Source: Escherichia coli (lineage in GTDB: Bacteria > Pseudomonadota > Gammaproteobacteria > Enterobacterales > Enterobacteriaceae). From it: a stretch of 64,000 nucleotides of DNA. The stretch lies in assembly GCF_024223415.1 (NCBI RefSeq), contig NZ_CP100503.1; one strand, given 5' to 3'. The position numbers and the translations under genes were made by a program. Shown one piece after another: positions 27,387-64,000 of this stretch. Under the pieces are notes generated by a model that ran no database searches, was not told the origin of the DNA, and saw nothing but the letters and a program-made list of their open reading frames with translations. Numbering within the stretch: position 1 is the first letter of the stretch; every line of letters starts with the position of its first letter.

Positions 27387-27405
27387 CTCAGGAGGGGGAT
27401 TCCCA

Positions 27406-31068: not shown

Positions 31069-31118
31069 AGTTACGGCCTCACAAGTTGAATTAACAACCT
31101 GCTACCCGCTGTCAAACA

Positions 31119-33036: not shown

Positions 33037-33086
33037 TGTTTAGCAGCGGGTCGCAGGTTGTTTTATCAACTTACGAGGCCGTAACT

Positions 33087-35178: not shown

Positions 35179-38100
35179 TTATGCGTATTGTTGGATGACG
35201 GCCAGAACGTCCGCCACGTTGTGTTTTGTCTCGATAATCCACCAGTTACCCGGGAAATCGCTGTTCTTCGCCTTCGCTGGCAGCCAGCGAGCGCCGAATT
35301 TCGCCTTGATTGCGTCTTTCGCACGGAAAAGAACCCCTTTCATGCCTGAGGCTTCCTGAAGCCCAAATACCTCGCCAGCGGCGAATTTTGGTGCGTACAT
35401 CATCTTCAGGTCGGCGGTGGATACGCGATAATTCAGGCCAAGAGACTGAGCTATGCTGGTGGCATCACCCTGTATTGATGATAACTCTTCTTGTTTCTCG
35501 TTTCTGGCGGCAATCTCTTCCTCCGTGATGTTGCCAAGGGCCAGGTTTATCCGATCAGCGTCGGCCTGTTTCTCTTCATCGGTGCGCCCGGCAAGAACCG
35601 TGTTAATTCTCTGCAATATCTCCACATGATTCTTGCGCATGCTGAGCAATTCCGGCGTAACCTCGTTAAGATCCACCAGCCCAAGGATGGCAAGGTCGGA
35701 AAACATTGATACCAGGTTGTAGGTCATGCGATAGCTGAGTTGACCATAGGCTGATGGCAACTTCACCGCATCCATTTGATAGGCATCCATAAATTTAGAG
35801 CCGTCGTTTACGACATCCGCTATTGCAGGTGTGATTTTCCCTGTGGTGGCGGCCTCCCTGATTGCTGTTACCCACGATTGAGTCAGCGCGGCGACTGCAT
35901 GATTCAGATTGGCTTTCCGTTCTGCTGCGATGCGCGCGCTTGCTGCGTCCATTGCCTGCTTGATCTCGGCTTTATTGCTGTAAATGCCAATGGTGCCAAA
36001 CTGTGCTGTGGTGATCTCATAATCTGACGCCCGGAACTCATTGGTACCGAAAATGGCATTGGTGACTTCAAGTTCAGAATCCCCGTTACGAGTAGCCCCC
36101 TGGCTTGTTTTTTCCGGCATTCTGGCGATCGCATCCGCTATTTTCTCCTGAATTGCTTCAGGGGATAGCGTATCTCCGTATGACGCGATTACATCGCCAT
36201 AATTGGAGCCAAACAATTCAACCAGGAATGTTTCTGCCGAACGGATCTGGCGGTTATTCCCTTCCGACATCATACCAAGCACCCATTTTGCAATTGACGA
36301 CTTCAGCGCGCCGTCACGGCGATCCGGGTAAACCGCATGCTTCAGTGGGTCCGTATAGGTACCAACAAAATCAATGCTATAGCCTGACTCTGTAGTCTGA
36401 ACGCCGTATGAGTCAGTGATTTTGATCATGCCGCGCTGCTGGAAACGGTAGAAATCGTCACAGGAAATGATGTCGTTAATCCCGGCGATGGAGACGCCAC
36501 CACTGATTTTCTGCATAACAGCATCTTCATCGGGAGTTACATCCACCTGTTTATCCAGCGTCTTCACATCCCAGTTACCCGATTTGGTGCCTTTGAAGGT
36601 AAAGATGATCTCCACGTCTGCGCGCTGGCTGTCGAAGTCCAGCGACTTAATGCGAACGATATCACCGGCACAATCGTAGTATTGGCCTACACGCCATGAG
36701 CGATCGCCGATAACAAGGAACTCACTCGCATGGTTAACCAGGTCAGGATCAACATCCAGAATGCCTTTATTTATTGCATCCTCCACCAGCGGGCGCAGGC
36801 GTTTGATATCCGTCGCGGCCTTCTGAGTACGGTTCAATAATTTCTCATAGCGGGAGATGGCTTGAGAGATATTAGCCTTGCGCTGAATGGCGTTTTTCAA
36901 CGACGCGCGATACTGTGCTAACAACATACGGTCTGTGTGATGGACGCTCCCCCAGCGGGCCTTCCAGTCTGCGTTATCAGCTGCTTTGGCCATTACCGCC
37001 TGTTTGAATTTAGCTACCTCGGCGGTGGTCTTTTCAAGTTCCGCTTTGCTTCGCTCTAATTCAGCGGTAAGTACCTCCACATCCTCGCCAGCTGCGTGCT
37101 GCGCCTTGATGTAGTTCTGAAGGTCGATAGTAGCCTGTTCTTTCTGGCGAGCGCGTTGCGCGGCTTTCGCCTTATCCATTTGAACCTGCATCATTGCCAG
37201 ACGTTCGCCATCATCCTTAGCGGTATACATCTGCATTTCGATCATATCGTTGGCGTCGGCGTTCTCCATTTCAGACTTATCTGAGCGGAGGATATCGGAG
37301 ATCCAGCCTGCTTTACGCTTCAGCGTCTTCAGTCGGTATTCATCGAAAGAACCCTTGCCGCAGTAGTAGTGAACGCGAACGCTTGCACGGTTGGAACCAA
37401 CTCGGGCACCGCGACCGTTACGCTGTGCGATACTGGCTGGTGTCCATGGCAACGTCAGATGATGGATGTCAGTCGTTCCTCGATGCAGGTTGATACCCAC
37501 CTCTGCCTTTTTGTTGCAGATGATGATCGGAGTCCGGCCCTCCTGGAAGTCGGCAGCAATCTTTTCCAGCCCACCCAGCGACATTTCATTTTGCTGCGCG
37601 ATATAGGCGTCATACAGAGCCATTTGCTCGTTGTATTTCGCTATCTGTGCATCTGTTGGTTCATCCGGTAGCTCTTTCGGCGGTTTAACCGCTTTCAGTT
37701 TCTTACCGGTTTTACCTGCCTCGGCAACCGTCTGAGCATTCAGGATCCCCACCTTTGAAGGTTCAAGGTTAAGAGCATTGCAGATAATGCGCTTGAGCTT
37801 CTGGTGTTGCGTTTTTTCATCGGTGAAGATGATTTGCTTACCTTCCGGGAAAAACTCCTTCAGCGTGGCGATCAGCTTCGCGTATTTCGGCGTAACGGGG
37901 TGAGTTACGGTCTGTTCGTCAATGCCAAACCTGGCCAGGCGCTTATTCACTTCCTGCTCGAACGCTTCCGGAACCTGCAACTGAATAAACTCGCCCTTAT
38001 CTATCAGGGAGTATTGCGATTGCTGCGTGATCGAATCATCACTGTCGTCGTCTTCGCTGGTGGCTTGTTTAGGCAAACTGTCCGCCAGCTGCTGCACCGC

Positions 38101-40068
38101 ATCGGCGTACTCCGGCAGGAAACGATAGGTGATCCTGCGATAGTACAGGTCCATGTCAGTACATACGCGGTCCATATCCCTGATTATTGAGAAGATCGGA
38201 CGGGCTTTCTCGTGCTCAATCACGCCGTCTTCATTGACCGAGGTCGTTACGCCATTGTTGGCTTTGGCTGCCGCTTCCGCCTGCTGACGCAATTCTTCAT
38301 ACGCCGCCAGTTGTTCTTCCGTAAGTGGTGCATCCTGCTGGTGTTCGTCCAGTTCCGGGATCTCCACGGTATCCTTAACGTCTTCCGCCGTTTTAAGCGT
38401 TGTCCAGCGATGGAATATGCCGCGCAGCGCATCAAGGTTTTCAAAGCCCACCAGCGCCATTTTTTCTTCAACTTCACCGCTAATTTTCTGTACCGTTTCC
38501 AGCCTGGTCTTGCCGAAGAATTTAACGAAGTCATCAGGACCGTAGATCCCCATCTTCTGCCAGTATTCCTTCGGCAGCACATGAGAAAGCATGTTGTATG
38601 CATCGATCGGGGTGTTAACGACTGGCGTTGCAGTCAGGAGAACCGGTCCGCGCCCACCATTCTTTTTCATCAGGTACGCGTTTTTAATTGCCATATCCCG
38701 CGCCGATTGCGCCACCGCGCTGGTGGGCAGATAGGCCAGTTGTGACGCTTCGCGACCATTTTTATAGCTATTGCGGTAGTTGTGACCTTCGTCAGCGATC
38801 ACACTATCGAAGCCCATATCCTCAAAGTACGGATACTTCTCTGCTTTTTCGGTGCCGGTATCTGAATACTCCGACAATACCCGGCGACGCGCGGCCTCTT
38901 TGCGGTGGGAGTCGGAGTCCATTGCGCTGGCTACGCGCCCGGCGGCAACGAAGTCATAAAGCATATCCTGTGCATGCTCATCTACGGTGTCATCACGTAG
39001 CGGAATGCGGGCGTATTGTTCTTTGGTAAACACGACTGCACGGTAATTTGAGTGCGGGATCGCGTTCATCCGCGCCGTGATAGTGGCTTCATCTGCCAGC
39101 TTAAGAGCATCGCGCATAACTGGAGTGCCATCAGTACCAAGAACAGGTTTACCGTTCTCATTGAGCACCGGCACCTGGCGAATCTGATCGCCATCCATCA
39201 GCACATCAAGACCGACGAACAGGTAGTTACTGAATGCCTCTTCACTCAGGAACTCTTTTGCTTCGTAATACCAGTTTTCCAGCACTGATTTAGGCACTAC
39301 ATACGCAGTACGGGTGGAACGACCGTTCTCATAGTTGAACGCCTCAAGCGCCAGCGCGGTCGTGGTTTTACCCAGCCCGGTACCGAAGCCCAGGATGCCG
39401 CGCCCATCTTCGGACAGTCGGCGCACCTCGCTATTCTGGTAATCAAATGGCTGTCGCTTACCGCTTAATCCCTTCAACCCAAGCGGATCGCCAGAGTGTT
39501 CATACGGGATATTGCTATTGAACACATCGTTGTATTTGGCAACCAGCTCATCGTAGCGATCGTGCGTCTTGATCCACTTATTGAACTGGTCCTCAAGCAG
39601 TGCCATCTGCTCGCGGTAGCCGTTCGCCGTCGCGCTATCTTTGCCACCGATACGCGCACCATTGAGATACTTTTCCAGCTGTGCCGGGAACCCGGTCGCG
39701 TTTTCACCTGATTTACGGTCCCACTCGTAGCGGATCTCGCCTGTTTCTTTATCCTTGCGCTGGACGACACCGTATCGGTGCCCGACGAACAGACCATCAC
39801 CACCGTGATAGGTGTCAGAAACCATTTCGTCGCCTTCCAGCTGCACTGACTGCACATAGCGAAGATCCGGATAGCCGTTTTCCTGCAAAAATTCCAGAAT
39901 GACGGAACGGTCGAACCAACGGCTATTGAGCTTAAAGCGGATATTCTCTGCTGGCGTCTTGATGCGCTTCTCTTCGATCGCTGCCAGCTGATTAAGGACG
40001 TTGTTCTTTACCCAGTGCGCCGTAAAGCCCCGTCCTTCAGGTCGGGGATATAAGGCGCGGTTTTCCAC
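35179..40068 (-). CDS. darB: DarB-like giant SF2 helicase, N-terminally truncated by IS copy 1 (native sequence ends at 40011; first 19 codons come from the IS left end)
   Basis: Helicase motifs GFGTGLGKTTTAL, VIADEGHNYRN, LLTATPVVNTP and QRNGRGARVG are present. The reading frame enters the IS at TTAC (40008-40011). No methyltransferase domain is present upstream. Confidence 0.7.
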   Translation of the reverse strand: MENRALYPRPEGRGFTAHWVKNNVLNQLAAIEEKRIKTPAENIRFKLNSRWFDRSVILEFLQENGYPDLRYVQSVQLEGDEMVSDTYHGGDGLFVGHRYGVVQRKDKETGEIRYEWDRKSGENATGFPAQLEKYLNGARIGGKDSATANGYREQMALLEDQFNKWIKTHDRYDELVAKYNDVFNSNIPYEHSGDPLGLKGLSGKRQPFDYQNSEVRRLSEDGRGILGFGTGLGKTTTALALEAFNYENGRSTRTAYVVPKSVLENWYYEAKEFLSEEAFSNYLFVGLDVLMDGDQIRQVPVLNENGKPVLGTDGTPVMRDALKLADEATITARMNAIPHSNYRAVVFTKEQYARIPLRDDTVDEHAQDMLYDFVAAGRVASAMDSDSHRKEAARRRVLSEYSDTGTEKAEKYPYFEDMGFDSVIADEGHNYRNSYKNGREASQLAYLPTSAVAQSARDMAIKNAYLMKKNGGRGPVLLTATPVVNTPIDAYNMLSHVLPKEYWQKMGIYGPDDFVKFFGKTRLETVQKISGEVEEKMALVGFENLDALRGIFHRWTTLKTAEDVKDTVEIPELDEHQQDAPLTEEQLAAYEELRQQAEAAAKANNGVTTSVNEDGVIEHEKARPIFSIIRDMDRVCTDMDLYYRRITYRFLPEYADAVQQLADSLPKQATSEDDDSDDSITQQSQYSLIDKGEFIQLQVPEAFEQEVNKRLARFGIDEQTVTHPVTPKYAKLIATLKEFFPEGKQIIFTDEKTQHQKLKRIICNALNLEPSKVGILNAQTVAEAGKTGKKLKAVKPPKELPDEPTDAQIAKYNEQMALYDAYIAQQNEMSLGGLEKIAADFQEGRTPIIICNKKAEVGINLHRGTTDIHHLTLPWTPASIAQRNGRGARVGSNRASVRVHYYCGKGSFDEYRLKTLKRKAGWISDILRSDKSEMENADANDMIEMQMYTAKDDGERLAMMQVQMDKAKAAQRARQKEQATIDLQNYIKAQHAAGEDVEVLTAELERSKAELEKTTAEVAKFKQAVMAKAADNADWKARWGSVHHTDRMLLAQYRASLKNAIQRKANISQAISRYEKLLNRTQKAATDIKRLRPLVEDAINKGILDVDPDLVNHASEFLVIGDRSWRVGQYYDCAGDIVRIKSLDFDSQRADVEIIFTFKGTKSGNWDVKTLDKQVDVTPDEDAVMQKISGGVSIAGINDIISCDDFYRFQQRGMIKITDSYGVQTTESGYSIDFVGTYTDPLKHAVYPDRRDGALKSSIAKWVLGMMSEGNNRQIRSAETFLVELFGSNYGDVIASYGDTLSPEAIQEKIADAIARMPEKTSQGATRNGDSELEVTNAIFGTNEFRASDYEITTAQFGTIGIYSNKAEIKQAMDAASARIAAERKANLNHAVAALTQSWVTAIREAATTGKITPAIADVVNDGSKFMDAYQMDAVKLPSAYGQLSYRMTYNLVSMFSDLAILGLVDLNEVTPELLSMRKNHVEILQRINTVLAGRTDEEKQADADRINLALGNITEEEIAARNEKQEELSSIQGDATSIAQSLGLNYRVSTADLKMMYAPKFAAGEVFGLQEASGMKGVLFRAKDAIKAKFGARWLPAKAKNSDFPGNWWIIETKHNVADVLAVIQQYA

Positions 40069-40485
40069 CTAACCAGGTGTTTGCTGTTGTTCAATGTATT
40101 GGCGGATGATGGATATTGGTGCGCCACCGCAGCTACTGGCAAAATAGCTGGGACTCCATAAAACGCCTTTGTAGTAATATCGGGCTGCAATATCTGGTCG
40201 ATCTCGTCGCAATAATCTACTCGATACGCCCTTGAGACTGTTCACCAGGCTGGATATCGCCAATTTGGGGGGATAGTTAATTAGCAGGTGAACGTGATCT
40301 CGTTCTCCATCCATTTCAACCAGTTCAGCTTCAAAATCAGCACATACACTTGAAAAGTAAGTGCGTAGTTTTTCTATTGCGTCATGGTCAAAAATCTGAC
40401 GTCGGTATTTTGCGACAAAGACCAGGTGAACGTGCATCAGGAAGACGCAGTGTCTTCCACGTCGGATATCAGTTTCTTTTTTTAT
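40069..40485 (-). CDS. tnpA: TnpA Y1 transposase, copy 1; canonical ATG replaced by ATA
   Basis: Same protein as copy 2 (KKETDIRRGRHCVFLMHVHLVFVAKYRR...SYFASSCGGAPISIIRQYIEQQQTPG), but nt 40483 is T where copy 2 has C. The copy-2 start codon is therefore ATA here. The track's 178-aa ORF uses an upstream ATG. Confidence 0.7.
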   Translation of the reverse strand: MKKETDIRRGRHCVFLMHVHLVFVAKYRRQIFDHDAIEKLRTYFSSVCADFEAELVEMDGERDHVHLLINYPPKLAISSLVNSLKGVSSRLLRRDRPDIAARYYYKGVLWSPSYFASSCGGAPISIIRQYIEQQQTPG

Positions 40486-40507
40486 GGACCAAAGTATAAT
40501 TTGGCTT

Positions 40508-41716
40508 ATGAAACGACTACAAGCTTTCAAATTCCAGTTAAGACCAAATGGACAGCAGGAGCGTGAAATGAGGCGCTTCGCGGGCGCATGTCGTTTCGTT
40601 TTCAATCGTGCTCTGGCGCTTCAGAATGAGAATCATGAGGCCGGGAACAAATATATTTCTTATGCAAAGATGACTTCCTGGCTGGTTGAATGGAAAAATG
40701 CTACTGAAACGCAATGGCTTAAAGATTCTCCCTCACAGCCATTGCAGCAGTCACTGAAAGACCTTGAGCGAGCCTACAAAAATTTCTTTCAGAAGCGTGC
40801 CTCTTTTCCCCGCTTCAAAAAGCGGGGACAGAATGATGCATTCCGCTATCCGCAGGGCGTTAAGCTCGACCAAGGGAACGGTCGTATTTTTCTGCCAAAA
40901 CTTGGCTGGATGCACTACCGGAACAGCCGTCAGGTCTCGGGGATTGTGAAAAACGTCACTGTCAGCCAGTCCTGCGGTAAGTGGTACATCAGTATTCAGA
41001 CAGAAAGTGAAGTATCAACTCCGGTTCACCCTTCAGCATCAATAGTCGGTCTGGATGCAGGCGTGGCTAAACTCGCCACGCTGTCAGATGGCACAGTCTT
41101 TGAGCCTGTAAACAGTTTTCAGAAAAACCAGAAGACGCTGGCGAGACTTCAGCGACAGTTAAGCCGCAAGGTCAAATTCAGCAACAACTGGCAGAAGCAG
41201 AAATGCAAAATACAGCGACTGCATTCCCGTATCGCAAATATCCGCAGGGACTACCTTCACAAAGTCACAACGACCGTCAGCAAAAACCACGCCATGATAG
41301 TCATTGAGGATTTGAAGGTCAGTAACATGTCAAAGTCAGCAGCGGGTACGGTCAGCCAGCCGGGGCGCAATGTCCGGGCAAAATCAGGTTTAAACCGTTC
41401 GATACTGGATCAGGGCTGGTATGAAATGCGCCGTCAGCTTGAGTACAAGCAGCTCTGGCGAGGCGGTCAGGTGCTTGCGGTTCCGCCAGCGTACACAAGC
41501 CAGCGTTGCGCGTGCTGTGGTCATACAGCGAAAGAAAACCGCCTGTCACAAAGTCAATTCAGATGCCAGGTATGTGGATATACAGCGAACGCCGATGTAA
41601 ACGGCGCTCGTAACATTTTAGCGGCGGGGCACGCCGTTCTTGCCTGTGGAGGGATGGTGCAGTCAGGCCGCCCGTTGAAGCAGGAACCCACCGAAATGAT
41701 TCAGGCGACAGCCTGA
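40508..41716 (+). CDS. tnpB: TnpB, copy 1
   Basis: [17 protein letters not shown]... with IVGLDAGV, the CACCGH..CQVCGY zinc finger and ADVNGARNI. The track start 40484 is probably 8 codons too early. Confidence 0.9.
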
Positions 41717-41797
41717 ACGTAGCAGGAATCCACGTCCTTCAGGGCGTGGAGGATGTCAATGGAGCCTCCCCTTCTCTGCCGACGTTCAGGGGGGTTT

Positions 41798-42835
41798 ATG
41801 AAAACACCTCTCGTCACCCGTAATGACATAGCCGAAGCGATCGCCCTGCATACTGCCTGTATGCCGACACGGGAGATCCCCGGCGCAATTGCCAACTATT
41901 TCATGATAACCAGACGTTTTTATACCCGAACAGATAAGGCTGTGATCAACAAGCTACTGATAGCCGAGATCAGGGATTATTTGATTGAACAAGGACGTCT
42001 ACGTTACGCAACAGTGGCAGCAGAAATGAGAAAGGAGGCACATAGAATGACCGGTAATAATTTAAATGTTGAAAAACCAGCACCTGTTGCTTCAGCTACG
42101 CCAGCACCAGCCGTGAATATCATCCCCAACACCGGAGACACAATCGACAGCCTGACACTGTTAAAGATGGTCAATGAAGCGCGTAAGTTATGTGGGGAAC
42201 CAGAGGTTCGGAACAACAAATTCATCGAAAAAATACTCGATGAGCTTGATGGTGAGCACTACACAAAAAGTGTAGTGGAAAAAATGAACAAAACATCAAT
42301 GCTTGTCATAACCATGACTTTCAAACAAGCCCTGCGAGTCGCCGCGCGCGAGTCAAAAGCGGTCCGCCGTTCGCTGATCGACAAACTGGAAGAATTACAG
42401 CAGGCAAACTCACCTACCCCATCGATCCCCCAGACATTACCAGAAGCCCTACGCCTGGCTGCCGAGTTGGCAGAACAGAAAATGCAGCTGGAACAACAGC
42501 TGGTGGCCGCAGCCCCTAAAGTCGATTTTGCCGACCGGGTATCAGTGGCCAATGGAATCCTGATCGGGAACTTTGCAAAGGTCGTTGGACTTAAGCAAAA
42601 CGCCCTTTTCTCATGGTTGCGCCAGAACGGCATTCTCATGGCTTTTGGTGCGCGCAAAAACGTACCGCGCCAACAGTACATCAACGCCGGGTATTTCACG
42701 GTGAAAGAAGTGGTGCTGGATGATGAAAATGGCTACCAGATACGGCTGACGCCCCAATTAACGGGTAAAGGCCAGCAGTGGTTAACTCGCAAGCTACTTG
42801 ATGCTGGTTTGTTAAAACCAGTAGCAATAGGTTAA
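41798..42835 (+). CDS. ant: Antirepressor Ant, copy d (native immI position upstream of kilA), 345 aa
   Basis: MKTPLVTRNDIAEAIALHTACMPTREIPGAIANYFMI... has the same three-part architecture, with the middle domain as in copy b. The upstream 38 nt resemble the 3' end of icd and abut the IS right end. Confidence 0.8.
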   Translation: MKTPLVTRNDIAEAIALHTACMPTREIPGAIANYFMITRRFYTRTDKAVINKLLIAEIRDYLIEQGRLRYATVAAEMRKEAHRMTGNNLNVEKPAPVASATPAPAVNIIPNTGDTIDSLTLLKMVNEARKLCGEPEVRNNKFIEKILDELDGEHYTKSVVEKMNKTSMLVITMTFKQALRVAARESKAVRRSLIDKLEELQQANSPTPSIPQTLPEALRLAAELAEQKMQLEQQLVAAAPKVDFADRVSVANGILIGNFAKVVGLKQNALFSWLRQNGILMAFGARKNVPRQQYINAGYFTVKEVVLDDENGYQIRLTPQLTGKGQQWLTRKLLDAGLLKPVAIG

Positions 42836-51378: not shown

Positions 51379-51462
51379 GGTGAAATCGTGGCGATTTCAC
51401 CTTGAAATTTTAGATGGATTTACTTTAAAAACAGTAGGTTAATAGTGAAATTTGAATGGCGA
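51379..51462 (-). other. parS: parS centromere
   Basis: gtgaaatcgtggcgatttcac...(AT-rich IHF-like spacer)...agtgaaatttgaatggcga contains box A heptamers ATTTCAC and box B TCGCCA on both arms. It matches P1 parS from memory. Confidence 0.85.
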
Positions 51463-51466
51463 AAGT

Positions 51467-52468
51467 TTAAGGCTTCGGCTTTTTATCGAGGCTCTTTCTA
51501 AGGATATGCCCAATCATCCTGTCGAGTTCTTCCTGTAGCTCTTTTGAAAGTCGATTAAACTCATAAGAAAATGCACGGCCTTTCACGCGCTTCCTTGCAA
51601 AGCGATCCTTGTCCTCAAATTTCCATAATTCAGTAACTACGGACTTATCTTTAGAACCTTTATCCGTGAGTAGTGAGGCTTCCTTTGTTATCAAGCGCAG
51701 GATTTTATTTTTAACTTCATCTTCGGCCATTTCTTCAATGGATAAGATGTCGTTTATTTCCGGGGATATGTTTTGAATAAGCTGATCAAACTCTAAATTC
51801 TTGTTCCCCATTTCGTCGCCAACAGCACAAAGCGTTTTGTAGTCCGAAAAGGTTAATTCCGACTGCACAGGGAAAAGGGCGACTAATTCTTCCGGAGCAC
51901 TCGCTGCCTGGAGAGCACGCGTGACCTTCGCCTGAGACAGCCCTTCTTTGGCTGCAATATCCTTCTGACTCATCCCATCATTTTTCATTCGCATCAAACG
52001 CAGACCTATTTCTCGAATGCTGTGCTGCAATGCTGTCTGAACGTCTTTCGCTAAATTTTGCGCTTCCTGAACGCTGATCTCCTGGTCCGTGACTAAAACC
52101 CGCAACCCTACGTTCTCTAAGATGGCAGAAGCTCGACGCCGGGAACCATCCAAAATTTCAATTTTCCCTGTAGCCTGTCTAACACCTATTGCAGGGTAAA
52201 ATTGCTGATGCTTAATAGTGCTTCGGATACTTTTTAATGATTTTGGCGTAAGAGATGCCTGGTCACGCCCGTTGTTATGCTGATCAACAAAGGTATCGCT
52301 TTCTACCTGGTTCGGAGGTATTACCTCTTCAATAAATGTGGCCTGGCGACCAGTTGATAACTTGAATACCTGCTCGACTCGATCGCCAGAGGCTGAAGAA
52401 CTATCAAATCCGCTTAATATTGAAGGATTAAGGGTTCGCCCAATTGTTGGTCTGTTTTTCTTTGACAT
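51467..52468 (-). CDS. parB: ParB partition protein, 333 aa
   Basis: MSKKNRPTIGRTLNPSILSGFDSSSASGDRVEQVFKLSTGRQATFIEEVIPPNQVESDTF... matches P1 ParB from memory, and the length matches. Confidence 0.95.
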   Translation of the reverse strand: MSKKNRPTIGRTLNPSILSGFDSSSASGDRVEQVFKLSTGRQATFIEEVIPPNQVESDTFVDQHNNGRDQASLTPKSLKSIRSTIKHQQFYPAIGVRQATGKIEILDGSRRRASAILENVGLRVLVTDQEISVQEAQNLAKDVQTALQHSIREIGLRLMRMKNDGMSQKDIAAKEGLSQAKVTRALQAASAPEELVALFPVQSELTFSDYKTLCAVGDEMGNKNLEFDQLIQNISPEINDILSIEEMAEDEVKNKILRLITKEASLLTDKGSKDKSVVTELWKFEDKDRFARKRVKGRAFSYEFNRLSKELQEELDRMIGHILRKSLDKKPKP

Positions 52469-52484
52469 GGGGGTTTCTTACTCC

Positions 52485-53681
52485 TCAGTTAGATCTGATA
52501 AATTCAATACGGTCAAAAACTGCTTTAGCAAAATCTTCCGCAGCAATTCGCGCGTTCTTCAATGCATCAGCACTACCAACATACGTTGCCGGGTTAGCTG
52601 AAATAACAGTGTCAAAAGACTCGCCGCAGCGTTCAAAACCGTCAAGGCGAGGGAGGACGACATCAAGCATATCCCCACCGAACACTTCTTTAGCCAGGCT
52701 ATGGCAATACTTATGGTCTGCCTTGTTACTCAACTTGGACATAAAACCAATGTTAGTCGCAAGCTGGCACTCGCAGCCTTCATCCGAAATGAGTTTCACC
52801 AACTCAGGAAGGCGAGCAACATATTTAAGCGATGAGTGGAAATCAACCGTTGCAGGCGGCAGAGGTGTAAACAGTATATTGGCCGAGGCCAAAGCATTTT
52901 TCAGGAAGGCGTCAAGGTGAGGACCACTATCAACGAGGATAAAGTCATAATCGCTCTTCAGCTTATCAATCACATTTTCTTTCAGGACTGCATGGATGTT
53001 CTGACCCGGTAGATGCTCATTGCACAGCTCTCTCCAATCGGATGCAATAAAGGCATCGTCAATCGACGCAGGCATAACGTCAACCCCAGGTACAACAGAA
53101 GGAACAATAAACTCCTCTAACAGCTCTTCACGGCTTACATTCTGCAACATAGCCTGTGCAGATGTTGCGTTTACGATACCAATAGAGTGTTTATGGCTTA
53201 AAAACATCGTTGCTGAAGATTGCGGATCAAGGTCAATAACCAGAATCCTTAAATCTTCCATCAGAAGATGAGGGTGAGCACGCATTGCATGCGCCAGAGA
53301 AACCGTCGATACAGTTTTTGACACACCGCCTTTAAGATTGGAGATGAAAATCACATACGCTTCGCTGTAGCGATCCCGGTATTTTGGCACTCCGCGATGT
53401 TCATATATGTCAATGATGTTCTGAATTGACATCGCATATTTCATTGAAGAGCCAGCAGGGCGTTTATCGAAAACATAACCCTTTTCTTCCATTTCACTTA
53501 CGGCATAGTCAACGTTCGCTCGAGTCAGTAGAGGCAATTTTGCCAGTGCCGCTTTCGCATAGACTTGGTAAAACTCGTTCGCGTGTAGCTCATCCTTTTG
53601 CAACTGTACTTGTTCAGTCAGAACATTGAGCATTCTGTTTGCTCTTTGAGCAACCTTGTGAAGCTGGCTGGAATCACTCAT
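52485..53681 (-). CDS. parA: ParA partition ATPase, 398 aa
   Basis: Deviant Walker A KGGVSKT and an N-terminal HTH region. Matches P1 ParA. Confidence 0.95.
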   Translation of the reverse strand: MSDSSQLHKVAQRANRMLNVLTEQVQLQKDELHANEFYQVYAKAALAKLPLLTRANVDYAVSEMEEKGYVFDKRPAGSSMKYAMSIQNIIDIYEHRGVPKYRDRYSEAYVIFISNLKGGVSKTVSTVSLAHAMRAHPHLLMEDLRILVIDLDPQSSATMFLSHKHSIGIVNATSAQAMLQNVSREELLEEFIVPSVVPGVDVMPASIDDAFIASDWRELCNEHLPGQNIHAVLKENVIDKLKSDYDFILVDSGPHLDAFLKNALASANILFTPLPPATVDFHSSLKYVARLPELVKLISDEGCECQLATNIGFMSKLSNKADHKYCHSLAKEVFGGDMLDVVLPRLDGFERCGESFDTVISANPATYVGSADALKNARIAAEDFAKAVFDRIEFIRSN

Positions 53682-53821
53682 CGAAAGTCATCCTTTATGC
53701 TGTATTTTTGAATTTACTTAAAAATGCTGCATAAAATAATAATGTATGCACAGATGCTTGTACATAGCATTCTCTGCATGTTTGGTTCATTTTGCACGAT
53801 TGAGAGTTACAAGGAGGACAC

Positions 53822-53842
53822 AAAAAAGCCCCGTTCAGGGGC
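53822..53842 (-). terminator. Rho-independent terminator after the T5orf172-like gene
   Basis: Minus strand reads gcccc-tgaac-ggggc followed by tttttt. Confidence 0.7.
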
Positions 53843-53849
53843 ATCAGTG

Positions 53850-54659
53850 TTATTTGCTAAGAGCAGCGAATAATCGTTCGAAATCGATAGTATCTATAGC
53901 ACGCGTAAGCGCCGGAAGTTCAGTCTCAAAGTACCCGTGTCGATCGTAAAAGAAGGGACCGAAGAGCGAGGCATGTTGGATTCTACTTCGCCCCAGCCCG
54001 GACACACAGTTAAGCCCATTACCGGCTAAAAGGCTAAAAAACTTCTCTGGATTATCGTGGTAAAGCTGGGAATCAATGGTGGCGGTTAACTCTTCCATAG
54101 GGAAGCACACCCGCCCTGTCTCCCAGGGATATTTAGTCCGAAGCATAAACACTGCTTTCAGCAATTCACATTGAGCGCGGATCGCGTCCGGTTCATAGCC
54201 AGATATGGAGACATAAGCCACGTCCCTCATTCCTGCGTCATCTTTGAAAGTCACGATAGAAGTAACATCCAACTCTTTTTCGAAAGAGCGAGCAGCATCT
54301 ACTGGACGCTGAAGTAAATCATTCGACTTAATGCGCTCGAGAATCCCTCCCCACATATCATTTAGATATTCGATATGAGCCAAAACCTTATCAAGACACT
54401 CTCGTGTAAACCATTCAGTATGCCCGCCACCGGCGCTTTTCTCCCACGGCGCATTCCAGGGGAAAAAGGTTGCGTGTAAAGCCCGCTCAAGATTAACTAT
54501 TGCCAAACGCGTACCACGATAGACCCGTGAAAGCGCAAAATCGGGACTCACTTGTAGCCCTTTAAACCGTGCCAATGGACCACATGAAATGCCGATTTTA
54601 AAAGTATCTCCATTCTCCGGCACCAGAACGTAGAGGTAGTGTTGTTTCTCTTCTTGCAT
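53850..54659 (-). CDS. T5orf172 / GIY-YIG-like domain protein, 269 aa
   Basis: N-terminal YLYVLVPENGDTFKIGIS...LERALHATF...GGHTEWF is the T5orf172 (MUG113-like) signature. The C-terminal ~150 aa are unrecognised. Confidence 0.65.
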   Translation of the reverse strand: MQEEKQHYLYVLVPENGDTFKIGISCGPLARFKGLQVSPDFALSRVYRGTRLAIVNLERALHATFFPWNAPWEKSAGGGHTEWFTRECLDKVLAHIEYLNDMWGGILERIKSNDLLQRPVDAARSFEKELDVTSIVTFKDDAGMRDVAYVSISGYEPDAIRAQCELLKAVFMLRTKYPWETGRVCFPMEELTATIDSQLYHDNPEKFFSLLAGNGLNCVSGLGRSRIQHASLFGPFFYDRHGYFETELPALTRAIDTIDFERLFAALSK

Positions 54660-54693
54660 ATCAATACCACTGCTTGATGAGAACCGCGCAAAT

Positions 54694-54950
54694 GTTGACT
54701 ATGCGCGAAAGTTAATGTGAATAGTTGACTATGCGCGATGTGACTACAGTAAAAAGTTGACTGTAGTCGATTTAACTCCACCAAAGATCGACTATGTAAG
54801 ATATTGTCGGGAGAAACGTTGACTATACGCGATGAAATGACCCTAAAAGCCATCTCAATAGCGACTTGCAGAATATTGACGCCAGCAAAAATCCACCAGC
54901 GTCAACGAATGTCGCCTATAGTCAACTTCTCGCTATCGCATATAGTCAAT
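54694..54950. repeat. incA: incA-like iteron array downstream of repA (about 8 copies, both orientations)
   Basis: Copies of GTTGACTATGCGCGA / its complement TCGCGTATAGTCAAC occur at ~54694, 54724, 54756, 54818, 54910 and 54935, plus degenerate copies. Confidence 0.8.
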
Positions 54951-54951
54951 A

Positions 54952-55836
54952 TTATGGATTACGCTTATGGATCTGGAAGCCGATTTTCCTGCCGTTTTTT
55001 ATCTCTGAAAATTTAAGATATTCAATAGCTTCCAAATCTTTCATGGCTTTTCTGATAACGCTATTTTGCACGCTAACGGATGATTTGAGATTAAGCCTTG
55101 CTCTAAGGCGCTCAATGCTGACAGGTGCCGGGTTGGCGGGTAGAGCCTCAAAGAATGTATACAGTACCTTGGCCGTCTCTTTGCGCCCGAGCTTATCCAG
55201 CATCTTCAGCTTCAGGATTCGCTTATAGTCAACATAGTAAAGTTCAGATAGCTGTTTCTGCGGCTGGATCTCGATAACATCAAGCTCGGTATTCAGGCTG
55301 CTATATGCCAACAAGTTGACGTTAATGTTATTGAGATGACCTTTTGCCGCCGGGAAGCGGAATTTGACAACTGTCTGCTGAATGCGTGTCAGAGAGTCAT
55401 CAATACTTTTACGGAACGCCTTTGAAAGGCGCTTACGTGGATAGCCGCATCGATCGGCAAACTCGGAGAATGGCAGGGTGATTATGCCGTCATCATCAGG
55501 TGCGTAGTCAAACAACGCGGAGGTTATGCCCACCCACACCTTAAAATCAGTATCCATATCCAGGCGTGGACCATGAATTTCAATTCCCTCATAGCCTTCC
55601 TGCTCAACAATTTTGAGGCTTGATAGTTCTTCGGTTGCGTTCGTTGTGTTTGTAGTAACTGACGATCCGCGACGTAGTGCCACATTGGTAGATTTTAAGG
55701 TTGGCACAAACACACCTAAGCGCAACAAAGCGATGGGTTGTATAGTGCTATTGTTATTGGGTTTCAGGCTGTGGATTTCTCCTGTATTTCCTGCAACTTC
55801 TTCAACGCTAAGGAAGCCTTTATTTTCTTCCGGCAT
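54952..55836 (-). CDS. repA: RepA plasmid replication initiator (iteron-binding), 294 aa
   Basis: Homologous but clearly not identical to P1 RepA (shared ...LLRLGVFVP...GPRLDMDTDFK.W.G...). I prefer ATG 55836 with SD ggag over the track start 55893. Confidence 0.85.
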   Translation of the reverse strand: MPEENKGFLSVEEVAGNTGEIHSLKPNNNSTIQPIALLRLGVFVPTLKSTNVALRRGSSVTTNTTNATEELSSLKIVEQEGYEGIEIHGPRLDMDTDFKVWVGITSALFDYAPDDDGIITLPFSEFADRCGYPRKRLSKAFRKSIDDSLTRIQQTVVKFRFPAAKGHLNNINVNLLAYSSLNTELDVIEIQPQKQLSELYYVDYKRILKLKMLDKLGRKETAKVLYTFFEALPANPAPVSIERLRARLNLKSSVSVQNSVIRKAMKDLEAIEYLKFSEIKNGRKIGFQIHKRNP

Positions 55837-55913
55837 CGTGGTTTCTCCATATGTGGCGCGGCCTGGCGTCATCTGGATTGCAGTTATCAACAACTGTGAA
55901 TAGTCAGGCTCTA

Positions 55914-56015
55914 AAATCGCGTACAGTCAATGTTTCTGTCGCGTATAGTCAACAATAAATCGCGTGCAGTCAACAATAAATCGTGCACAGTCAACATAAA
56001 ATCGCGTATAGTCAA
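55914..56015 (+). repeat. incC: Five direct iterons (incC) in oriR, ~21-bp spacing
   Basis: aaatcgcgtacagtcaa, tgtcgcgtatagtcaac, aaatcgcgtgcagtcaac, aaatcgtgcacagtcaac, aaatcgcgtatagtcaa. Confidence 0.85.
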
Positions 56016-56056
56016 TGTTAATCCCATTTCAGGCCAGAAATGGCGCGGCTTACAGC

Positions 56057-58736: not shown

Positions 58737-59634
58737 GCACTGGAAAAACATTACTATTTATAAACTTTCTCGTGAGGCGGATCTGACCGACTTAGAAGAT
58801 AAAAAGAAAATGATCCTTTTCACGCCATGCGGTAGTCAGGATATGGCCAAGTTCGGTTTTGTATCTCCATTTGGTGATAATTCCGAAGTTATCGCTATGC
58901 ATGGAAATGGTTTTATCCTTGTTGAAGCAAAGCGCGAAACAAAAATTCTTCCCCCGCCGGTTATCCAGCGAGCTATTCAAGAAAAAATTGAAAAACTTGA
59001 GCAAGAACAAGCGCGTAAACTGAAGAAAACAGAGAAGGACTCCCTGAAAGACGAAGTTCTGCATTCTCTTCTGCCACGGGCTTTTTCAAAGTTTTCTGTT
59101 ATCCAGGCGATCTACGACGGTTCAACTAAACGTATCTATATCAATGCCAGCACGCGGCAGGCAGAGGATATGCTCGCGCTTATGCGTAAGTCTCTGGGTT
59201 CTCTTCCTGTTGTTCCCCTGAGTGTTGAAAATCCCATTGAATTAACGCTGACCGACTGGGTACGTGATGGTAGTGCTCCACAGGGATTTCAAATGGGGGA
59301 TGCGGCAGAACTTAAGGCAGTGCTTGAGGATGGCGGTATTGCCCGAGTGAAAAAGCAGGATTTGGGAAGCGATGAAATTTCCACACACCTGGAAGCTGGC
59401 AAGCTCGTCACTAAGTTGGCACTCGACTGGCAGAACCGCATTAAATTTACACTGGACCATAACTTCAGCCTTACCAGCGTCAAATTTGCGGATGAATTGC
59501 TTGAGCAGAACTCTGATATTGATAGTGAAGATGTAGCGCAGCGACTGGACGCAGATTTCTTCCTGTTGACCAGTGAAATTTCGTGCCTGGTTGATGCTCT
59601 GGTAAATGCCCTTGGTGGAGAGGCTAAGCAGTGA
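58729..59634 (+). CDS. hrdC: RdgC-family recombination-associated protein (P1 HrdC), 301 aa
   Basis: Collinear similarity to E. coli RdgC from memory ([14 protein letters not shown]...[42 protein letters not shown]...[25 protein letters not shown]). Confidence 0.9.
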
Positions 59635-62291
59635 AAGAGCTGTGCTATGGATCTGTTTGCAGTGGAATTGAAGCCGCGAGTATTGCCTGGGAACCGTTGG
59701 GTATGCGTCCGGCGTGGTTTGCTGAAATCGAGCCTTTTCCATCAGCCGTTCTTGCGCACCGCTGGCCCCATGTCGCCAACCTTGGCGACATGACAAAACT
59801 TGCCAAAAAAGTCCTGGCTGGGGAAATCGAATCCCCTGATGTGCTGGTGGGAGGGACACCATGTTTTACCGCGGGCCATATGGTTCTTTGTAAAAATGGT
59901 TATAAACCAATAGAAGATGTTTGCCCTGGCGATTACGTAGTCAGTCATCTCGGGCGGTTACAACAAGTAAAAAAAGTTGGTTCAAAAATAGCTAATACGG
60001 GGTTACTTAATGCCGTTGGGCAGCCTTTAGGTATAAGAACAACCAACGACCATCCCTTCCTGGCGGTTCGGTGGAAAGCCCAAAACACCCGGAAAAATGG
60101 CACATATTTTAAGAGAGAGTTGTTGTCTGAACCGGAATGGCGAGCAGCATGTGATATGCCGGGATATCAATGGTGTGCTCTAACTAATTTCAATATTGCA
60201 TCTCCAGATATTTGTTCTCGGTTCTTGTCTGAAGAACAGGCTATGTATCTTGCGGGCGCTTATGTTGGCGATGGATATATTAGGAGATGGAGAGGTAAAT
60301 CTAAGAAGGCGGTTGTTTTTGGCATAAATTGCCAGAAATTGAGAAAGTTTCATTGCCGCATATCAGAAAACATATTTTCCGTGGCAAGCGAAATCCGAGG
60401 GAGCATCAAAGTAACCTTGAATGATACGTGTTATGCCAATTGGCTTAATGAACATTTTGGCGAGTTAAGCCATGCTAAGCGTATCCCTGCATGGGTGATG
60501 TCGCATCCATTGCGTCATGTGTTTTTACAAGGCTATCTTGATACTGATGGGACACCAAGTGGTAAAGCGGGATTTAGAATTAATAGTGTTAGTCCTGCGC
60601 TTGCTTGGGGCGTTGCGGAGTTGTCACAGACTTGTGGTTATGTTTCTTCGGTCAGCTTTATTGAAGTTGAGCCCAAAAAAGTGATTGAGGATCGCGTGGT
60701 AAATCAACGGAATTATTATCAGGTAACAATCTGCCCGCAGAAATTGTCACGTAAATCAAGATTGGCTCATGGAATGCTTTTACGAACAGTCAAAGAGTTT
60801 AAATCGGTAGGCCTAGATACTGTATACAACATAGAAGTCGAAGGTGATCATTCCTATATCCTCAATGGTGCGGTGGTCCATAACTGTCAGGCATTCAGTA
60901 TCGCTGGATTACGTGGCGGGCTTGATGATGAGCGTGGCGCGCTAACTTTAAAGTATGTGGAGCTTGCAAATGCAATTGACGACAAACGGGCTGAGTCATT
61001 TCTCAAACCAGCCGTTATCGTCTGGGAAAATGTCCCAGGAGTCTTGTCATCGGCAGATAACGCCTTCGGATGTTTCCTTGCCGGATTGGCTGGAGAAGAT
61101 GTGCCATTTGAACCAGGTGATCGACCTGAATCAGGAAAAAGCAACGCGTTCTGGCGGTGGGATGGCAAAACCGGTTGCCATGTTCCAAAGTGGCCGCAGT
61201 GTGGTTGTATTTATGGACCGCAGCGAAAGGTGGCCTGGAGAATCCTTGATGCCCAATACTTCGGAGTGGCACAACGACGCCGACGCGTGTTTGTTGTCGC
61301 AAGTGCTCGAACAGACCTCGATCCCGCAACGGTACTTTTTGAGTTCGAAGGCGTGCGCCGGAATATTGCGCCGAGCCGAAAAAAGAAGGAAATCGCTTCC
61401 GCCATTACTGCAAATGGCGCTGCAATCAGTGGCGAAAGCCTAAATCCATGCCTACACGCTGGCATGTCCCCCGGTATGAAATCGACGAAAGCCGTAAACG
61501 CTTTCAGGATGGCAGCATTTGGGGAATATATTGACGATGAAACCGCATCGACAGTAAAGGCAAGAGATTTTAAAGATGCCACTGACCTTGCCGTTTTTAG
61601 CAGCACAGGAGCAGGTTTTTGGTCAGAAGGGCATGGTACATTGCGGGCACGTGAGCAAGAAAGCCATGAGCATCTTGTTACATTGGCTTTTCCTGAGCGT
61701 ATGAGCGGTACACAACATGCTGCAACTAAGAATACTTCACCATCTCTAATGGCTAAAAATCCAACAGCTGTTTGCTATGAAGTAAGAAACGCAGAAGTAG
61801 CTGTCCGCCGTCTTACCCCTGTCGAATGTGAAAGGCTGCAAGGTTTTCCTGATGGGCATACGTTGATCCCGACGGAAAAGCGTAAAAAAGTTAATTCAGA
61901 TGAACTGGCATATCTTCGCAATCACTATCCAGATTTAAGCGAAGAAGAGGCCGCGATGCTTGCAGCTGACGGACCGCGTTACAAAGCGATCGGCAATAGT
62001 ATGGCAATACCAGTAATGCGCTGGATTGGCGATCGGATTACTAAGGCCGTATGTCGGCAGAAAGAAGGAAGTGAAACAAAAGAGCGAAAAGTTAAACCAG
62101 CGGCAGAATTCGAACGGTCCATATTCAAATGGGCTGGTGGAAAATTTGGTGTTCTGGAACAAATCTTTCGCTATTTGCCAGAAGGGAAGCGCCTGATTGA
62201 ACCTTTTGTCGGTGGCGGAGCTGTCTTCACGAATGCCGGATACCAGGAAAATCTGCTAAATGATGTGAATGCTGACCTGATTAACTTTTAC
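59631..62291 (+). CDS. dmt: Dmt bifunctional DNA methyltransferase: C5-cytosine MTase domain (interrupted by an intein) + Dam-like N6A domain truncated by IS copy 2
   Basis: C5 motifs seen are I (VCSGIEAAS), IV (GGTP[intein]CQAFS), VI (ENVPG), VIII (QRRRRVF) and X (GNSMAIPV). A Dam-like domain follows ([14 protein letters not shown]...[10 protein letters not shown]...[11 protein letters not shown]) and stops at TTAC/IS. The ORF continues 13 codons into the IS (stop at 62333). Confidence 0.88.
59862..60884 (+). mobile_element. Intein (341 aa) with LAGLIDADG homing-endonuclease domain
   Basis: Cys1 ([13 protein letters not shown]), block B (TTNDHPF), LAGLIDADG x2 ([12 protein letters not shown]; [11 protein letters not shown]), block F ([14 protein letters not shown]) and block G (NGAVVHN|C) are all present. 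Length is 1023 nt, in frame. Excision restores GGTPCQAFS. Confidence 0.88.
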
Positions 62292-62348
62292 CCAGTGCGC
62301 CGTAAAGCCCCGTCCTTCAGGTCGGGGATATAAGGCGCGGTTTTCCAC

Positions 62349-62765
62349 CTAACCAGGTGTTTGCTGTTGTTCAATGTATTGGCGGATGATGGATATTGGT
62401 GCGCCACCGCAGCTACTGGCAAAATAGCTGGGACTCCATAAAACGCCTTTGTAGTAATATCGGGCTGCAATATCTGGTCGATCTCGTCGCAATAATCTAC
62501 TCGATACGCCCTTGAGACTGTTCACCAGGCTGGATATCGCCAATTTGGGGGGATAGTTAATTAGCAGGTGAACGTGATCTCGTTCTCCATCCATTTCAAC
62601 CAGTTCAGCTTCAAAATCAGCACATACACTTGAAAAGTAAGTGCGTAGTTTTTCTATTGCGTCATGGTCAAAAATCTGACGTCGGTATTTTGCGACAAAG
62701 ACCAGGTGAACGTGCATCAGGAAGACGCAGTGTCTTCCACGTCGGATATCAGTTTCTTTTTTCAT
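62349..62765 (-). CDS. tnpA: TnpA Y1 transposase, copy 2 (intact ATG), 138 aa
   Basis: MKKETDIRRGRHCVFLMHVHLVFVAKYRR... has the HUH motif and the C-terminal Tyr region. Confidence 0.88.
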   Translation of the reverse strand: MKKETDIRRGRHCVFLMHVHLVFVAKYRRQIFDHDAIEKLRTYFSSVCADFEAELVEMDGERDHVHLLINYPPKLAISSLVNSLKGVSSRLLRRDRPDIAARYYYKGVLWSPSYFASSCGGAPISIIRQYIEQQQTPG

Positions 62766-62787
62766 GGACCAAAGTATAATTTGGCTT

Positions 62788-63996
62788 ATGAAACGACTAC
62801 AAGCTTTCAAATTCCAGTTAAGACCAAATGGACAGCAGGAGCGTGAAATGAGGCGCTTCGCGGGCGCATGTCGTTTCGTTTTCAATCGTGCTCTGGCGCT
62901 TCAGAATGAGAATCATGAGGCCGGGAACAAATATATTTCTTATGCAAAGATGACTTCCTGGCTGGTTGAATGGAAAAATGCTACTGAAACGCAATGGCTT
63001 AAAGATTCTCCCTCACAGCCATTGCAGCAGTCACTGAAAGACCTTGAGCGAGCCTACAAAAATTTCTTTCAGAAGCGTGCCTCTTTTCCCCGCTTCAAAA
63101 AGCGGGGACAGAATGATGCATTCCGCTATCCGCAGGGCGTTAAGCTCGACCAAGGGAACGGTCGTATTTTTCTGCCAAAACTTGGCTGGATGCACTACCG
63201 GAACAGCCGTCAGGTCTCGGGGATTGTGAAAAACGTCACTGTCAGCCAGTCCTGCGGTAAGTGGTACATCAGTATTCAGACAGAAAGTGAAGTATCAACT
63301 CCGGTTCACCCTTCAGCATCAATAGTCGGTCTGGATGCAGGCGTGGCTAAACTCGCCATGCTGTCAGATGGCACAGTCTTTGAGCCTGTAAACAGTTTTC
63401 AGAAAAACCAGAAGACGCTGGCGAGACTTCAGCGTCAGTTAAGCCGCAAGGTCAAATTCAGCAATAACTGGCAGAAGCAGAAACGCAAAATACAGCGACT
63501 GCATTCCCGTATCGCAAATATCCGCAGGGACTACCTTCACAAAGTCACAACGACCGTCAGCAAAAACCACGCAATGATAGTCATTGAGGATTTGAAGGTC
63601 AGCAACATGTCAAAGTCAGCAGCGGGTACGGTCAGCCAGCCGGGGCGCAATGTCCGGGCAAAATCAGGTTTAAACCGTTCGATACTGGATCAGGGCTGGT
63701 ATGAAATGCGCCGTCAGCTTGAGTACAAGCAGCTCTGGCGAGGCGGTCAGGTGCTTGCGGTTCCGCCAGCGTACACAAGCCAGCGTTGTGCGTGCTGTGG
63801 TCATACAGCGAAAGAAAACCGCCTGTCACAAAGTCAATTCAGATGCCAGGTATGTGGATATACAGCGAACGCCGATGTAAACGGCGCTCGTAACATTTTA
63901 GCGGCGGGGCACGCCGTTCTTGCCTGTGGAGGGATGGTGCAGTCAGGCCGCCCGTTGAAGCAGGAACCCACCGAAATGATTCAGGCGACAGCCTGA
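62788..63996 (+). CDS. tnpB: TnpB, copy 2
   Basis: Same as copy 1 except for e.g. T->M (KLAMLSDG) and C->R (QKRKIQRL). Confidence 0.9.
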
Positions 63997-64000
63997 ACGT

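Follow-up and report, generated by a model that had tools for sequence, protein, structure and literature searches.

Copies of an IS609-like element at TTAC sites in dmt and at a darB-icd junction of a P1-like replicon from Escherichia coli

The insertion sequence (IS) IS608 (ISHp608) of Helicobacter pylori has TTAC as its target, for which it carries the left guide AAAG, along with TCAA 10 nt 3' of the right hairpin; excision of elements of this type reseals the donor without gain or loss, with TTAC kept (PMC3201880). In phage P1, the Dam activity of the methylase Dmt serves packaging by methylating the pac site, and only in dam- hosts is it essential; DarB, in contrast, is part of the Dar anti-restriction system (PMC12707154). 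P1-like phage-plasmids are known to become plasmids through the loss of genes (Pfeifer and Rocha 2024, PMC10879196). Here, we analyze a stretch of 64,000 nucleotides of Escherichia coli contig NZ_CP100503.1 (assembly GCF_024223415.1), hereafter the window, which consists largely of P1-like DNA and contains two copies of an IS609-like element of the IS200/IS605 family. Copy 2 cuts the Dam-like domain of dmt, whereas copy 1 joins a remnant of darB to the 3' end of icd, genes that in P1 are separated by 33.3 kb.

Disruption of the Dam-like domain of dmt

The original prediction held that the Dam-like domain of dmt is cut after a TTAC by an IS in the same orientation as copy 1, and this is what the comparisons show. 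The homology to P1 dmt (NC_005856, 67758-68049, 99.7% identity by megablast against phage records) ends at window position 62291 (query base 292), the C of the TTAC at 62288-62291, which is thus the last P1-homologous base in dmt. Up to the breakpoint, marked here with a slash, the two sequences agree; past it, P1 reads ...AACTTTTAC/AAGACTCTGCAACGC (in longer form, AACTTTTAC AAGACTCTGCAACGCGAGG) and the window reads ...AACTTTTAC/CCAGTGCGCCGTAAAG. All of the remaining sequence, 62292-64000, is a direct repeat of 40012-41720 at an offset of 22,280 nt, with 8 mismatches in 1709 nt; at 99.5% identity over this length, a chance or partial match between copies 1 and 2 is rejected. The features of this region are as follows.

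59631-62333, plus strand: dmt' open reading frame (ORF), 900 aa, from the ORF list, Pfam and tblastn against P1 Dmt
62130-62291, plus strand: N-terminal remnant of the Dam-like (D12 class N6-adenine methylase) domain, from the Pfam match and the comparison with P1 Dmt
62288-62291, plus strand: TTAC target tetranucleotide, which doubles as the left cleavage site; last P1-homologous sequence
62292-64000, plus strand: IS copy 2 (IS200/IS605 family, IS609-like), meeting the window end
62304-62327, plus strand: left guide AAAG of copy 2 (62304-62307), followed by the subterminal hairpin IPL (left imperfect palindrome) CCCCGTCCTTCAGGTCGGGG (62308-62327)
62349-62765, minus strand: tnpA of copy 2, 138-aa Y1 (HUH) single-strand transposase with an intact ATG
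62788-63996, plus strand: tnpB of copy 2, 402-aa InsQ/TnpB-type RNA-guided nuclease, from Pfam

The dmt' ORF comprises a C5-cytosine methylase part with an intein, the first ~54 residues of the D12 domain, 13 IS-encoded codons and a stop. Its Pfam matches are PF00145, PF13403 and PF14528 (Hint and LAGLIDADG), and PF02086 (MethyltransfD12). The C5-cytosine methylase domain is present (PF00145, E = 1.6e-30) in three stretches separated by the Hint and LAGLIDADG domains, which together indicate an intein. The MethyltransfD12 match, on residues 834-888, covers only positions 1-59 of the 253 in the profile, and the Dam-like remnant retains the FxGxG motif (EPFVGGGAV) that binds S-adenosylmethionine (AdoMet) but lacks DPPY, such that Dmt of the window falls short of a complete Dam-type D12 domain. 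Consistent with the prediction that no catalytic motif follows, a scan for [DNS]PP[YFW] in all six frames of 62292-64000 found no match. The C-terminus reads ...VNADLINFY followed by PVRRKAPSFRSGI, that is, 13 sense codons past the TAC codon at 62289-62291, with the stop at 62333, precisely the number of codons within the IS that had been predicted.

Comparison with P1 Dmt, a bifunctional C5/N6 methylase of 754 aa, places the breakpoint after residue 546, up to which the two proteins are colinear. P1 Dmt has its DPPY 118 residues beyond this point; the window lacks the motif along with the rest of the final 208 residues. The possibility that P1-family Dmt naturally ends at the breakpoint, which the original prediction had named as one of the findings that would overturn it, was rejected because P1 Dmt runs on for these 208 residues. 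The description of dmt as truncated stands insofar as the frame is cut before the catalytic motif, but truncation is indistinguishable here from interruption, given that the 3' part of dmt may lie just past the IS. The view of dmt as an anti-restriction gene was not borne out: the activity documented for its Dam part is pac-site methylation (PMC12707154).

The DNA flanking the insertion is 98-99.7% identical to the P1 dmt region, with the same arrangement of hrdC and dmt, including the overlapping start. Unlike the reference P1 Dmt, which has no intein, Dmt of the window contains one of 341 aa (Hint_2 and LAGLIDADG_3; window 59862-60884), which is also found in the P1 isolate OP279344. This intein lies in motif IV of the C5-methylase (GGTP/CFTAGH...AVVHN/CQAFS, slashes marking its ends), which makes the catalytic Cys of the PCQ motif the +1 extein residue. 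Without the intein, the length of the window Dmt is colinear with that of the reference P1 Dmt as far as the breakpoint. In OP279344, dmt is longer (1013 aa) and aligns over the intein stretch, whereas window positions 61377-61805, also within the dmt ORF, do not align to this isolate (430 nt versus 184 nt); despite this mismatch, the length of dmt up to the breakpoint equals that of the P1 reference plus the intein.

The element, its ends and its relatives

Membership of the element in the IS200/IS605 family is apparent from its two genes, a Y1 HUH TnpA (Pfam Y1_Tnp) and a TnpB with helix-turn-helix (HTH), RuvC-like and zinc-ribbon domains, which are divergently transcribed (tnpA on the minus strand and tnpB on the plus strand). 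In copy 2, TnpA matches PF01797 over the entire profile (1-121 of 121, E = 3.5e-42), and TnpB matches PF12323 (HTH_OrfB_IS605), PF01385 (OrfB_IS605) and PF07282 (Cas12f1-like TNB), each above the cut-off; an alternative upstream ATG at 62764 would extend TnpB to 410 aa. In copy 1, the start codon of tnpA is changed from ATG to ATA at base 40483, whereas the equivalent in copy 2 (62763) and in all public copies checked is ATG. Judging from this substitution, copy 1 is probably non-autonomous and reliant on the TnpA of copy 2. The TnpB proteins of the two copies differ in two residues, T199M and C241R. Transcription of tnpA runs outward through the left end, in the antisense orientation to dmt' at copy 2 and in the sense orientation to the darB remnant at copy 1; any regulatory effect of this arrangement would be speculative.

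There are no terminal inverted repeats; instead, subterminal imperfect hairpins are present at both ends, on the same top strand, with the arms CCCCGTCC..GGTCGGGG on the left and CCACGTCC..GGGCGTGG on the right. In DNA folds of the ends of copy 1, the left one of which is identical in copy 2, the left hairpin has a z-score of -3.4 and the right one of -2.9. The AAAG guide occupies the four bases 5' of the left hairpin in both copies (40024-40027 in copy 1 and 62304-62307 in copy 2), and TCAA at 41756-41759 ends 10 nt past the foot of the right hairpin (41749). Two observations set the right boundary of copy 1: a public NCBI contig (L005) ends in ...GGAGGATGTCAA, and P1 homology resumes at 41760. 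On the model of copy 1, copy 2 would extend a further 39 nt past the window end. Five independent insertions were compared, namely, the two copies in the window and those on L005, on a small Rep_1 plasmid contig (L004) and on an IncI plasmid (L007, NZ_CP128966.1). TTAC precedes the left end in all five, and the target is not repeated after the right end wherever this end can be read: the right flanks TGGAGC, ACCCAT and TGTGTG do not repeat TTAC, and that of copy 2 lies beyond the window. Rfam matches at 41589-41770 all scored below the gathering thresholds (HgcC, 24.1 bits against 50; sot0042, 18.7 against 88; RAGATH-18, 28.1 against 44.9); the HgcC and sot0042 matches, at the 3' end of tnpB and the right end, fit a putative TnpB guide RNA (omega/reRNA).

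These features closely resemble those of IS608, the TTAC target of which had been correctly named in the original prediction. The two elements share the Y1 TnpA and TnpB, an insertion site 3' of a TTAC that is not duplicated, an AAAG that directly precedes the left hairpin, a TCAA that ends 10 nt 3' of the right hairpin, and the location of both hairpins on the top strand. IS608 is nevertheless a different element from another host, with tnpA and tnpB co-oriented (Figure 1 legend of PMC3201880), whereas the divergent genes of the window element follow the IS605 arrangement, and the distance from TTAC to the foot of the left hairpin is 16 nt, compared to 19 nt in IS608. The chromosomal copies that the NCBI annotation pipeline PGAP labels as "IS200/IS605-like element IS609 family" are ~93.7% (93.2-93.7%) identical to the window element, which is below the level of at least ~95% nucleotide identity to reference IS609 that by the ISfinder convention defines the same element. 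With ~6% divergence from these PGAP-labelled copies, the window element is probably a distinct iso-element. Identity to plasmid copies, in contrast, is 99.7% over the full 1.75 kb (for example, pMTY1887_IncI, NZ_CP128966.1, and NZ_JBXSET010000007.1), and for copy 2, the identity to IS200/IS605 copies annotated on plasmids of E. coli amounts to 99.5-99.7%. IS609 and the near-identical plasmid copies have the same ends and the same TTAC target, whereas insertion sites in dmt and darB/icd were found in no searched record. The exact TnpA protein occurs in 124 blocks of public assemblies that include phage-plasmids, lambdoid prophages, plasmids and chromosomes, and among the contexts found, none has dmt beside it; the exact 402-aa TnpB of copy 2 was found only in GCA_021342475.1 and SRR29278626, on two short unrelated contigs. 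This is, then, a known, active and widespread IS, and by analogy, its conserved features suggest that it would move by the peel-and-paste route of IS608.

The two copies represent distinct haplotypes that differ at 8 positions, with most of the variants common to IS copies on other E. coli replicons. Therefore, a recent jump of copy 1 within the genome is not an obvious source of copy 2. Copy 1 has the haplotype of copy 2 at the informative positions as far as 385 but it differs from copy 2 at 472, and at positions 1068-1312, it shares six variants with the IncI plasmid copy; copy 1 is, accordingly, a mosaic of two IS haplotypes, which fits a recombinant origin. On the same IncI plasmid, CCGGTGCGCCGTAAAACCCCGTCCT, a lone stretch similar to the left end of the IS, occurs after TTTAT at position 5141 of the locus, ~380 bp downstream of the complete IS, and may be a remnant or a miniature derivative.

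A third, different IS200/IS605 element is located in the window at 27355-29169 on the minus strand, with a 410-aa tnpB (27406-28638) and a tnpA-like ORF (28691-29095). Its insertion site lies within the final codons of cre (the P1 homology breaks at OP279344 positions 1456/1454), and its right end also finishes with GGAGGATGTCAA, but its left flank is not TTAC. This tnpB was considered as belonging to a third copy of the same IS and rejected in that role, given that only a 647-nt stretch of it is shared with the IS found at dmt and darB, at 96%, which suggests a mosaic.

The darB-icd junction and the absent 33.3 kb

Copy 1 is complete, and its flanks define the second rearranged locus in the window.

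35179-40011, minus strand: darB remnant, corresponding to P1 DarB residues 646-2255 (tblastn, 99.2% over 1610 aa; megablast, P1 11290-15301)
40012-41759, plus strand: IS copy 1, complete, 1748 bp, in the same orientation as copy 2
41726-41759: right end of copy 1, with the guide GAAT (41726-41729), hairpin (41730-41749) and cleavage site TCAA (41756-41759)
41760-42835, plus strand: right flank of copy 1, made up of the final 42 nt of icd and then ant1 (41798-42835)

The darB remnant ends at the TTAC at 40008-40011 (CTTTAC; 10737-10740 in the P1 isolate OP279344), directly before the IS, such that both copies, as predicted, lie 3' of TTAC. Only SNF2-related, Helicase_C and ResIII domains were detected in the remnant by Pfam; the missing DarB residues 1-645 are where the annotated N6-methylase part of P1 DarB would lie. 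The right flank, icd, begins with the first base after a TTAC, and this TTAC is intact in P1 (tagTTAC/TGGAACC, OP279344 44083-44086, the slash marking the junction), and in relatives with identical Ant1, this icd TTAC is likewise intact (tagTTAC/TGGAGCCTCCCC). There are 236 TTAC on this strand in the 64 kb, which gives a random breakpoint a ~0.4% chance of falling at one, and therefore, the icd junction also bears the signature of TnpA. The predicted hit of the same IS in darB is thus half right: the left flank is indeed darB at a TTAC, but the right flank is icd, and the 5' part of darB is absent along with the rest of the 33.3 kb. Copy 1 is a hybrid junction, darB-TTAC/IS/icd 3' end, not a simple darB insertion, and therefore, a rearrangement involving this IS has already occurred.

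Three further modules resembling icd/ant (immI-type) were noticed in the window, at 22333-23804, 29786-31100 (minus strand) and 32958-34417, with ~80-88% DNA identity to P1 icd-ant1; two of these form an inverted pair with 811-nt arms at 90% identity. At the position that matches the icd insertion site, each reads cagTTAC/TGGTGCCTCCC, and each of these sites is empty.

Relative to OP279344, the window follows P1 70046-88361 and 434-10740 (gp5 via pac, c1, cre and ulx to darB') up to copy 1, and then P1 44087-64098 (icd', ant1, kilA, repL, gp21-23, par, repA, hrdC and dmt') up to copy 2. The 33.3 kb between these segments, P1 10741-44086, are absent from the window, and the usual darB-icd interval holds copy 1 alone. 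The absent segment, which includes portal, tail, baseplate and lysis genes, contains the 5' part of darB, prt, pro, lyz, ssb, the darA operon, lydA/B, cin, the tail fibre, baseplate, sit, tube and sim genes, and c4; tblastn with 29 proteins of this segment (including prt, pro, lyz, lydA/B, S/U/R, gp16, bplA, sit, tub and the darA operon) yielded 0 matches in the window. Between the dmt insertion site and the P1 position of the window start, the P1 backbone amounts to ~5.9 kb (the dmt 3' part, tRNAs, tciABC, ban and dbn). Taken together, this organization suggests that the replicon is probably a defective or rearranged P1-like plasmid. With defective P1-like plasmids (PMC10879196), it shares the backbone for replication, partition, immunity and packaging and the absence, in the 64 kb seen, of a large morphogenesis block; unlike in those plasmids, both breakpoints fall exactly at TTAC sites of an IS200/IS605 element.

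Two other regions depart from P1. The partition and replication genes (51411-56033) are strongly diverged, with amino acid identities of 58% for ParA, 43% for ParB and 41% for RepA between flanks that are 97-100% identical, which suggests that the P1 backbone here carries partition and incompatibility functions of another type. Between pap and phd, the place of pmgT in P1, 6.2 kb (10686-16896) have no counterpart in OP279344; the best phage record over window positions 1-25000 (vB_EcoM-673R5) lists HsdR and restriction subunit S under its match, suggesting type I restriction-modification cargo.

Origin of the arrangement and its implications

Very probably, the 1748-bp element inserted 3' of TTAC at dmt codon 546 (P1 numbering); the most likely history of the 33.3 kb is removal by recombination between IS copies. 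Under this scenario, copies would have settled first at the TTACs in darB and icd; homologous recombination between these direct repeats would have deleted the intervening segment, leaving one hybrid IS; and a further copy would then have inserted in dmt. By analogy with IS608, TnpA would excise the top strand as a single-stranded circle and paste it into a single-stranded target, with the left guide AAAG picking TTAC by base-pairing and no target duplication. Within the Dam-like domain, the insertion would come between the start, which binds AdoMet, and the catalytic part with DPPY, presumably located after copy 2, and translation would enter the left end for 13 codons and then stop, so that Dmt' would keep, at best, the activity of the intein-interrupted C5-methylase. 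Because GATC methylation by Dmt is needed for pac cleavage in dam- hosts only, E. coli hosts would tolerate such an insertion, and losing Dam activity would be conditionally neutral. The outcome would be a defective P1-derived plasmid of ~70 kb, in which the loss of dmt and darB is neutral. The proposal that the two direct copies could recombine with each other is also sound, since they are the same IS in the same orientation.

Several observations weigh against this scenario. All P1 late genes in the window (pacAB, gp5-7, 21-26, the pmg genes and lpa) are full length, without stops, whereas a long-defective plasmid would be expected to decay; hence, the deletion might be recent, or the 33 kb might reside elsewhere on the replicon. 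Gene decay, considered as a sign of a long-defective element, was uninformative, with the retained P1 genes all intact. Furthermore, the window ends short of the expected right end of copy 2, and for a simple insertion, the 3' part of dmt would come next, which is the expected rather than the observed continuation. Finally, the search of public records found neither the present junctions nor an ancestor with a single insertion, be it in icd or in darB. Specifically, k-mers spanning dmt and the left end had 0 exact matches in viral, genome and metagenome contigs, and those spanning darB and the left end, or the right end and icd, had 0 in viral contigs; with both junction regions as megablast queries against phages, plasmids and complete E. 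coli genomes, nowhere was more than 60% of the query covered. The hypothetical junctions were likewise absent, icd-TTAC with the left end from viral, metagenome and genome contigs, and the right end with the dmt 3' part or the darB 5' part from viral contigs. The exact proteins of the 900-aa Dmt', the 410-aa TnpB and the copy 1 TnpB are unrecorded, and the exact Ant1 protein occurs in the normal P1 gene order in all ten contexts shown.

Alternatively, copy 2, instead of being a simple insertion, would be a recombinant junction, formed either by a segment swap or by a cointegrate, that is, fusion with a second plasmid carrying the same IS. In the swap, the IS would have been present at the darB, icd and dmt TTACs, and one inter-IS segment would have been excised and reintegrated at another copy, producing the order darB'-IS-(icd..dmt')-IS-(darB 5'..c4/icd')-IS-dmt 3'; the 33 kb would then come right after copy 2, with a sequence predicted to begin TGGACCGTCGGGGAGTG, and the resulting ~105-kb element may still be a phage; all phage genes retained in the window are intact, which fits a functional one. 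Copy 1 proves that flank exchange at this IS has already happened, the same IS is found on IncI plasmids, other phage-plasmids and prophages in E. coli, and the haplotype of copy 1 is shared with the IncI plasmid copy, all of which agrees with a recombinant junction. However, the swap takes three insertions and two recombinations, compared to two insertions and one event for the deletion. The headful of P1 is ~94 kb plus ~10% redundancy, which a 105-kb genome would exceed or exhaust. The junction k-mers hypothesized for the swap are also missing from the scanned collections, a weak argument given that the real junctions are missing as well. On balance, we consider a recombinant origin of copy 2 unlikely.

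Assemblies are classically prone to misjoins at repeats of 1.7 kb, and none of the three junction arrangements was found in any public collection searched, so the possibility has to be weighed that the assembly crossed over between near-identical 1.75-kb IS repeats and that darB-IS-icd, and possibly dmt-IS, do not lie on one molecule. But the copies keep distinct haplotypes at 8 sites and thus were resolved individually rather than collapsed; the half-junctions of dmt-TTAC and darB-TTAC with the left end and of the right end with icd must exist even then, leaving dmt interrupted; and the precision with which all three sites fall at TTAC is a product of biology, not of an assembler. An artefact is, accordingly, decidedly improbable. 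The probability is smaller still, slight at most, that copy 2 acts as a reversible switch, whereby precise excision by TnpA restores dmt (TTAC/AAGACT...) in a subpopulation and renders Dam phase-variable. IS608-type excision is precise and preserves TTAC (PMC3201880), and therefore, the disruption of dmt may be undone, provided that its 3' part is downstream; copy 2 has TTAC and an intact tnpA, and comparison with copy 1 predicts that neither of its ends is damaged. Against this, there is no evidence of selection for switching, and the right end and the dmt 3' part lie beyond the window. TnpB normally counteracts element loss through homing, which would oppose such a switch.

The darB-icd junction itself could also have formed without homologous recombination, by an aberrant one-ended TnpA reaction of a single copy: cleavage after TCAA and at the distant icd TTAC, specified by the left guide AAAG, would be followed by strand exchange, with the 33 kb lost as a circle. 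We regard this route as improbable; an "adjacent deletion" of this kind would be new to the IS200/IS605 repertoire, and nothing in the present data requires it, although, if true, it would have made a P1-like phage-plasmid a plain plasmid in one step. In a related speculation, TnpB, using TTAC as its recognition motif and guide RNAs whose sequence is taken from the right flank in icd and, presumably, in dmt, might cut intact icd or dmt alleles of incoming P1 relatives.

The element, its target rule and the mechanism of its family are all already known, the hit in dmt is an ordinary gene-disrupting insertion, and the knockout of a conditionally dispensable phage methylase domain by an IS is of little significance in itself. 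Judging from the genes affected, GATC self-methylation and DarB-dependent anti-restriction are probably gone, and the replicon should not be annotated as an intact P1-like phage. The value of this locus is that it provides a cleanly resolved case of an IS200/IS605 element remodelling a P1-like phage-plasmid, with three TTAC sites (in darB, icd and dmt) used. At the copy 1 junction, 33 kb of essential virion and lysis genes were removed or moved with base-pair precision, which fits the recently described route from P1-like phage-plasmid to plasmid (PMC10879196).

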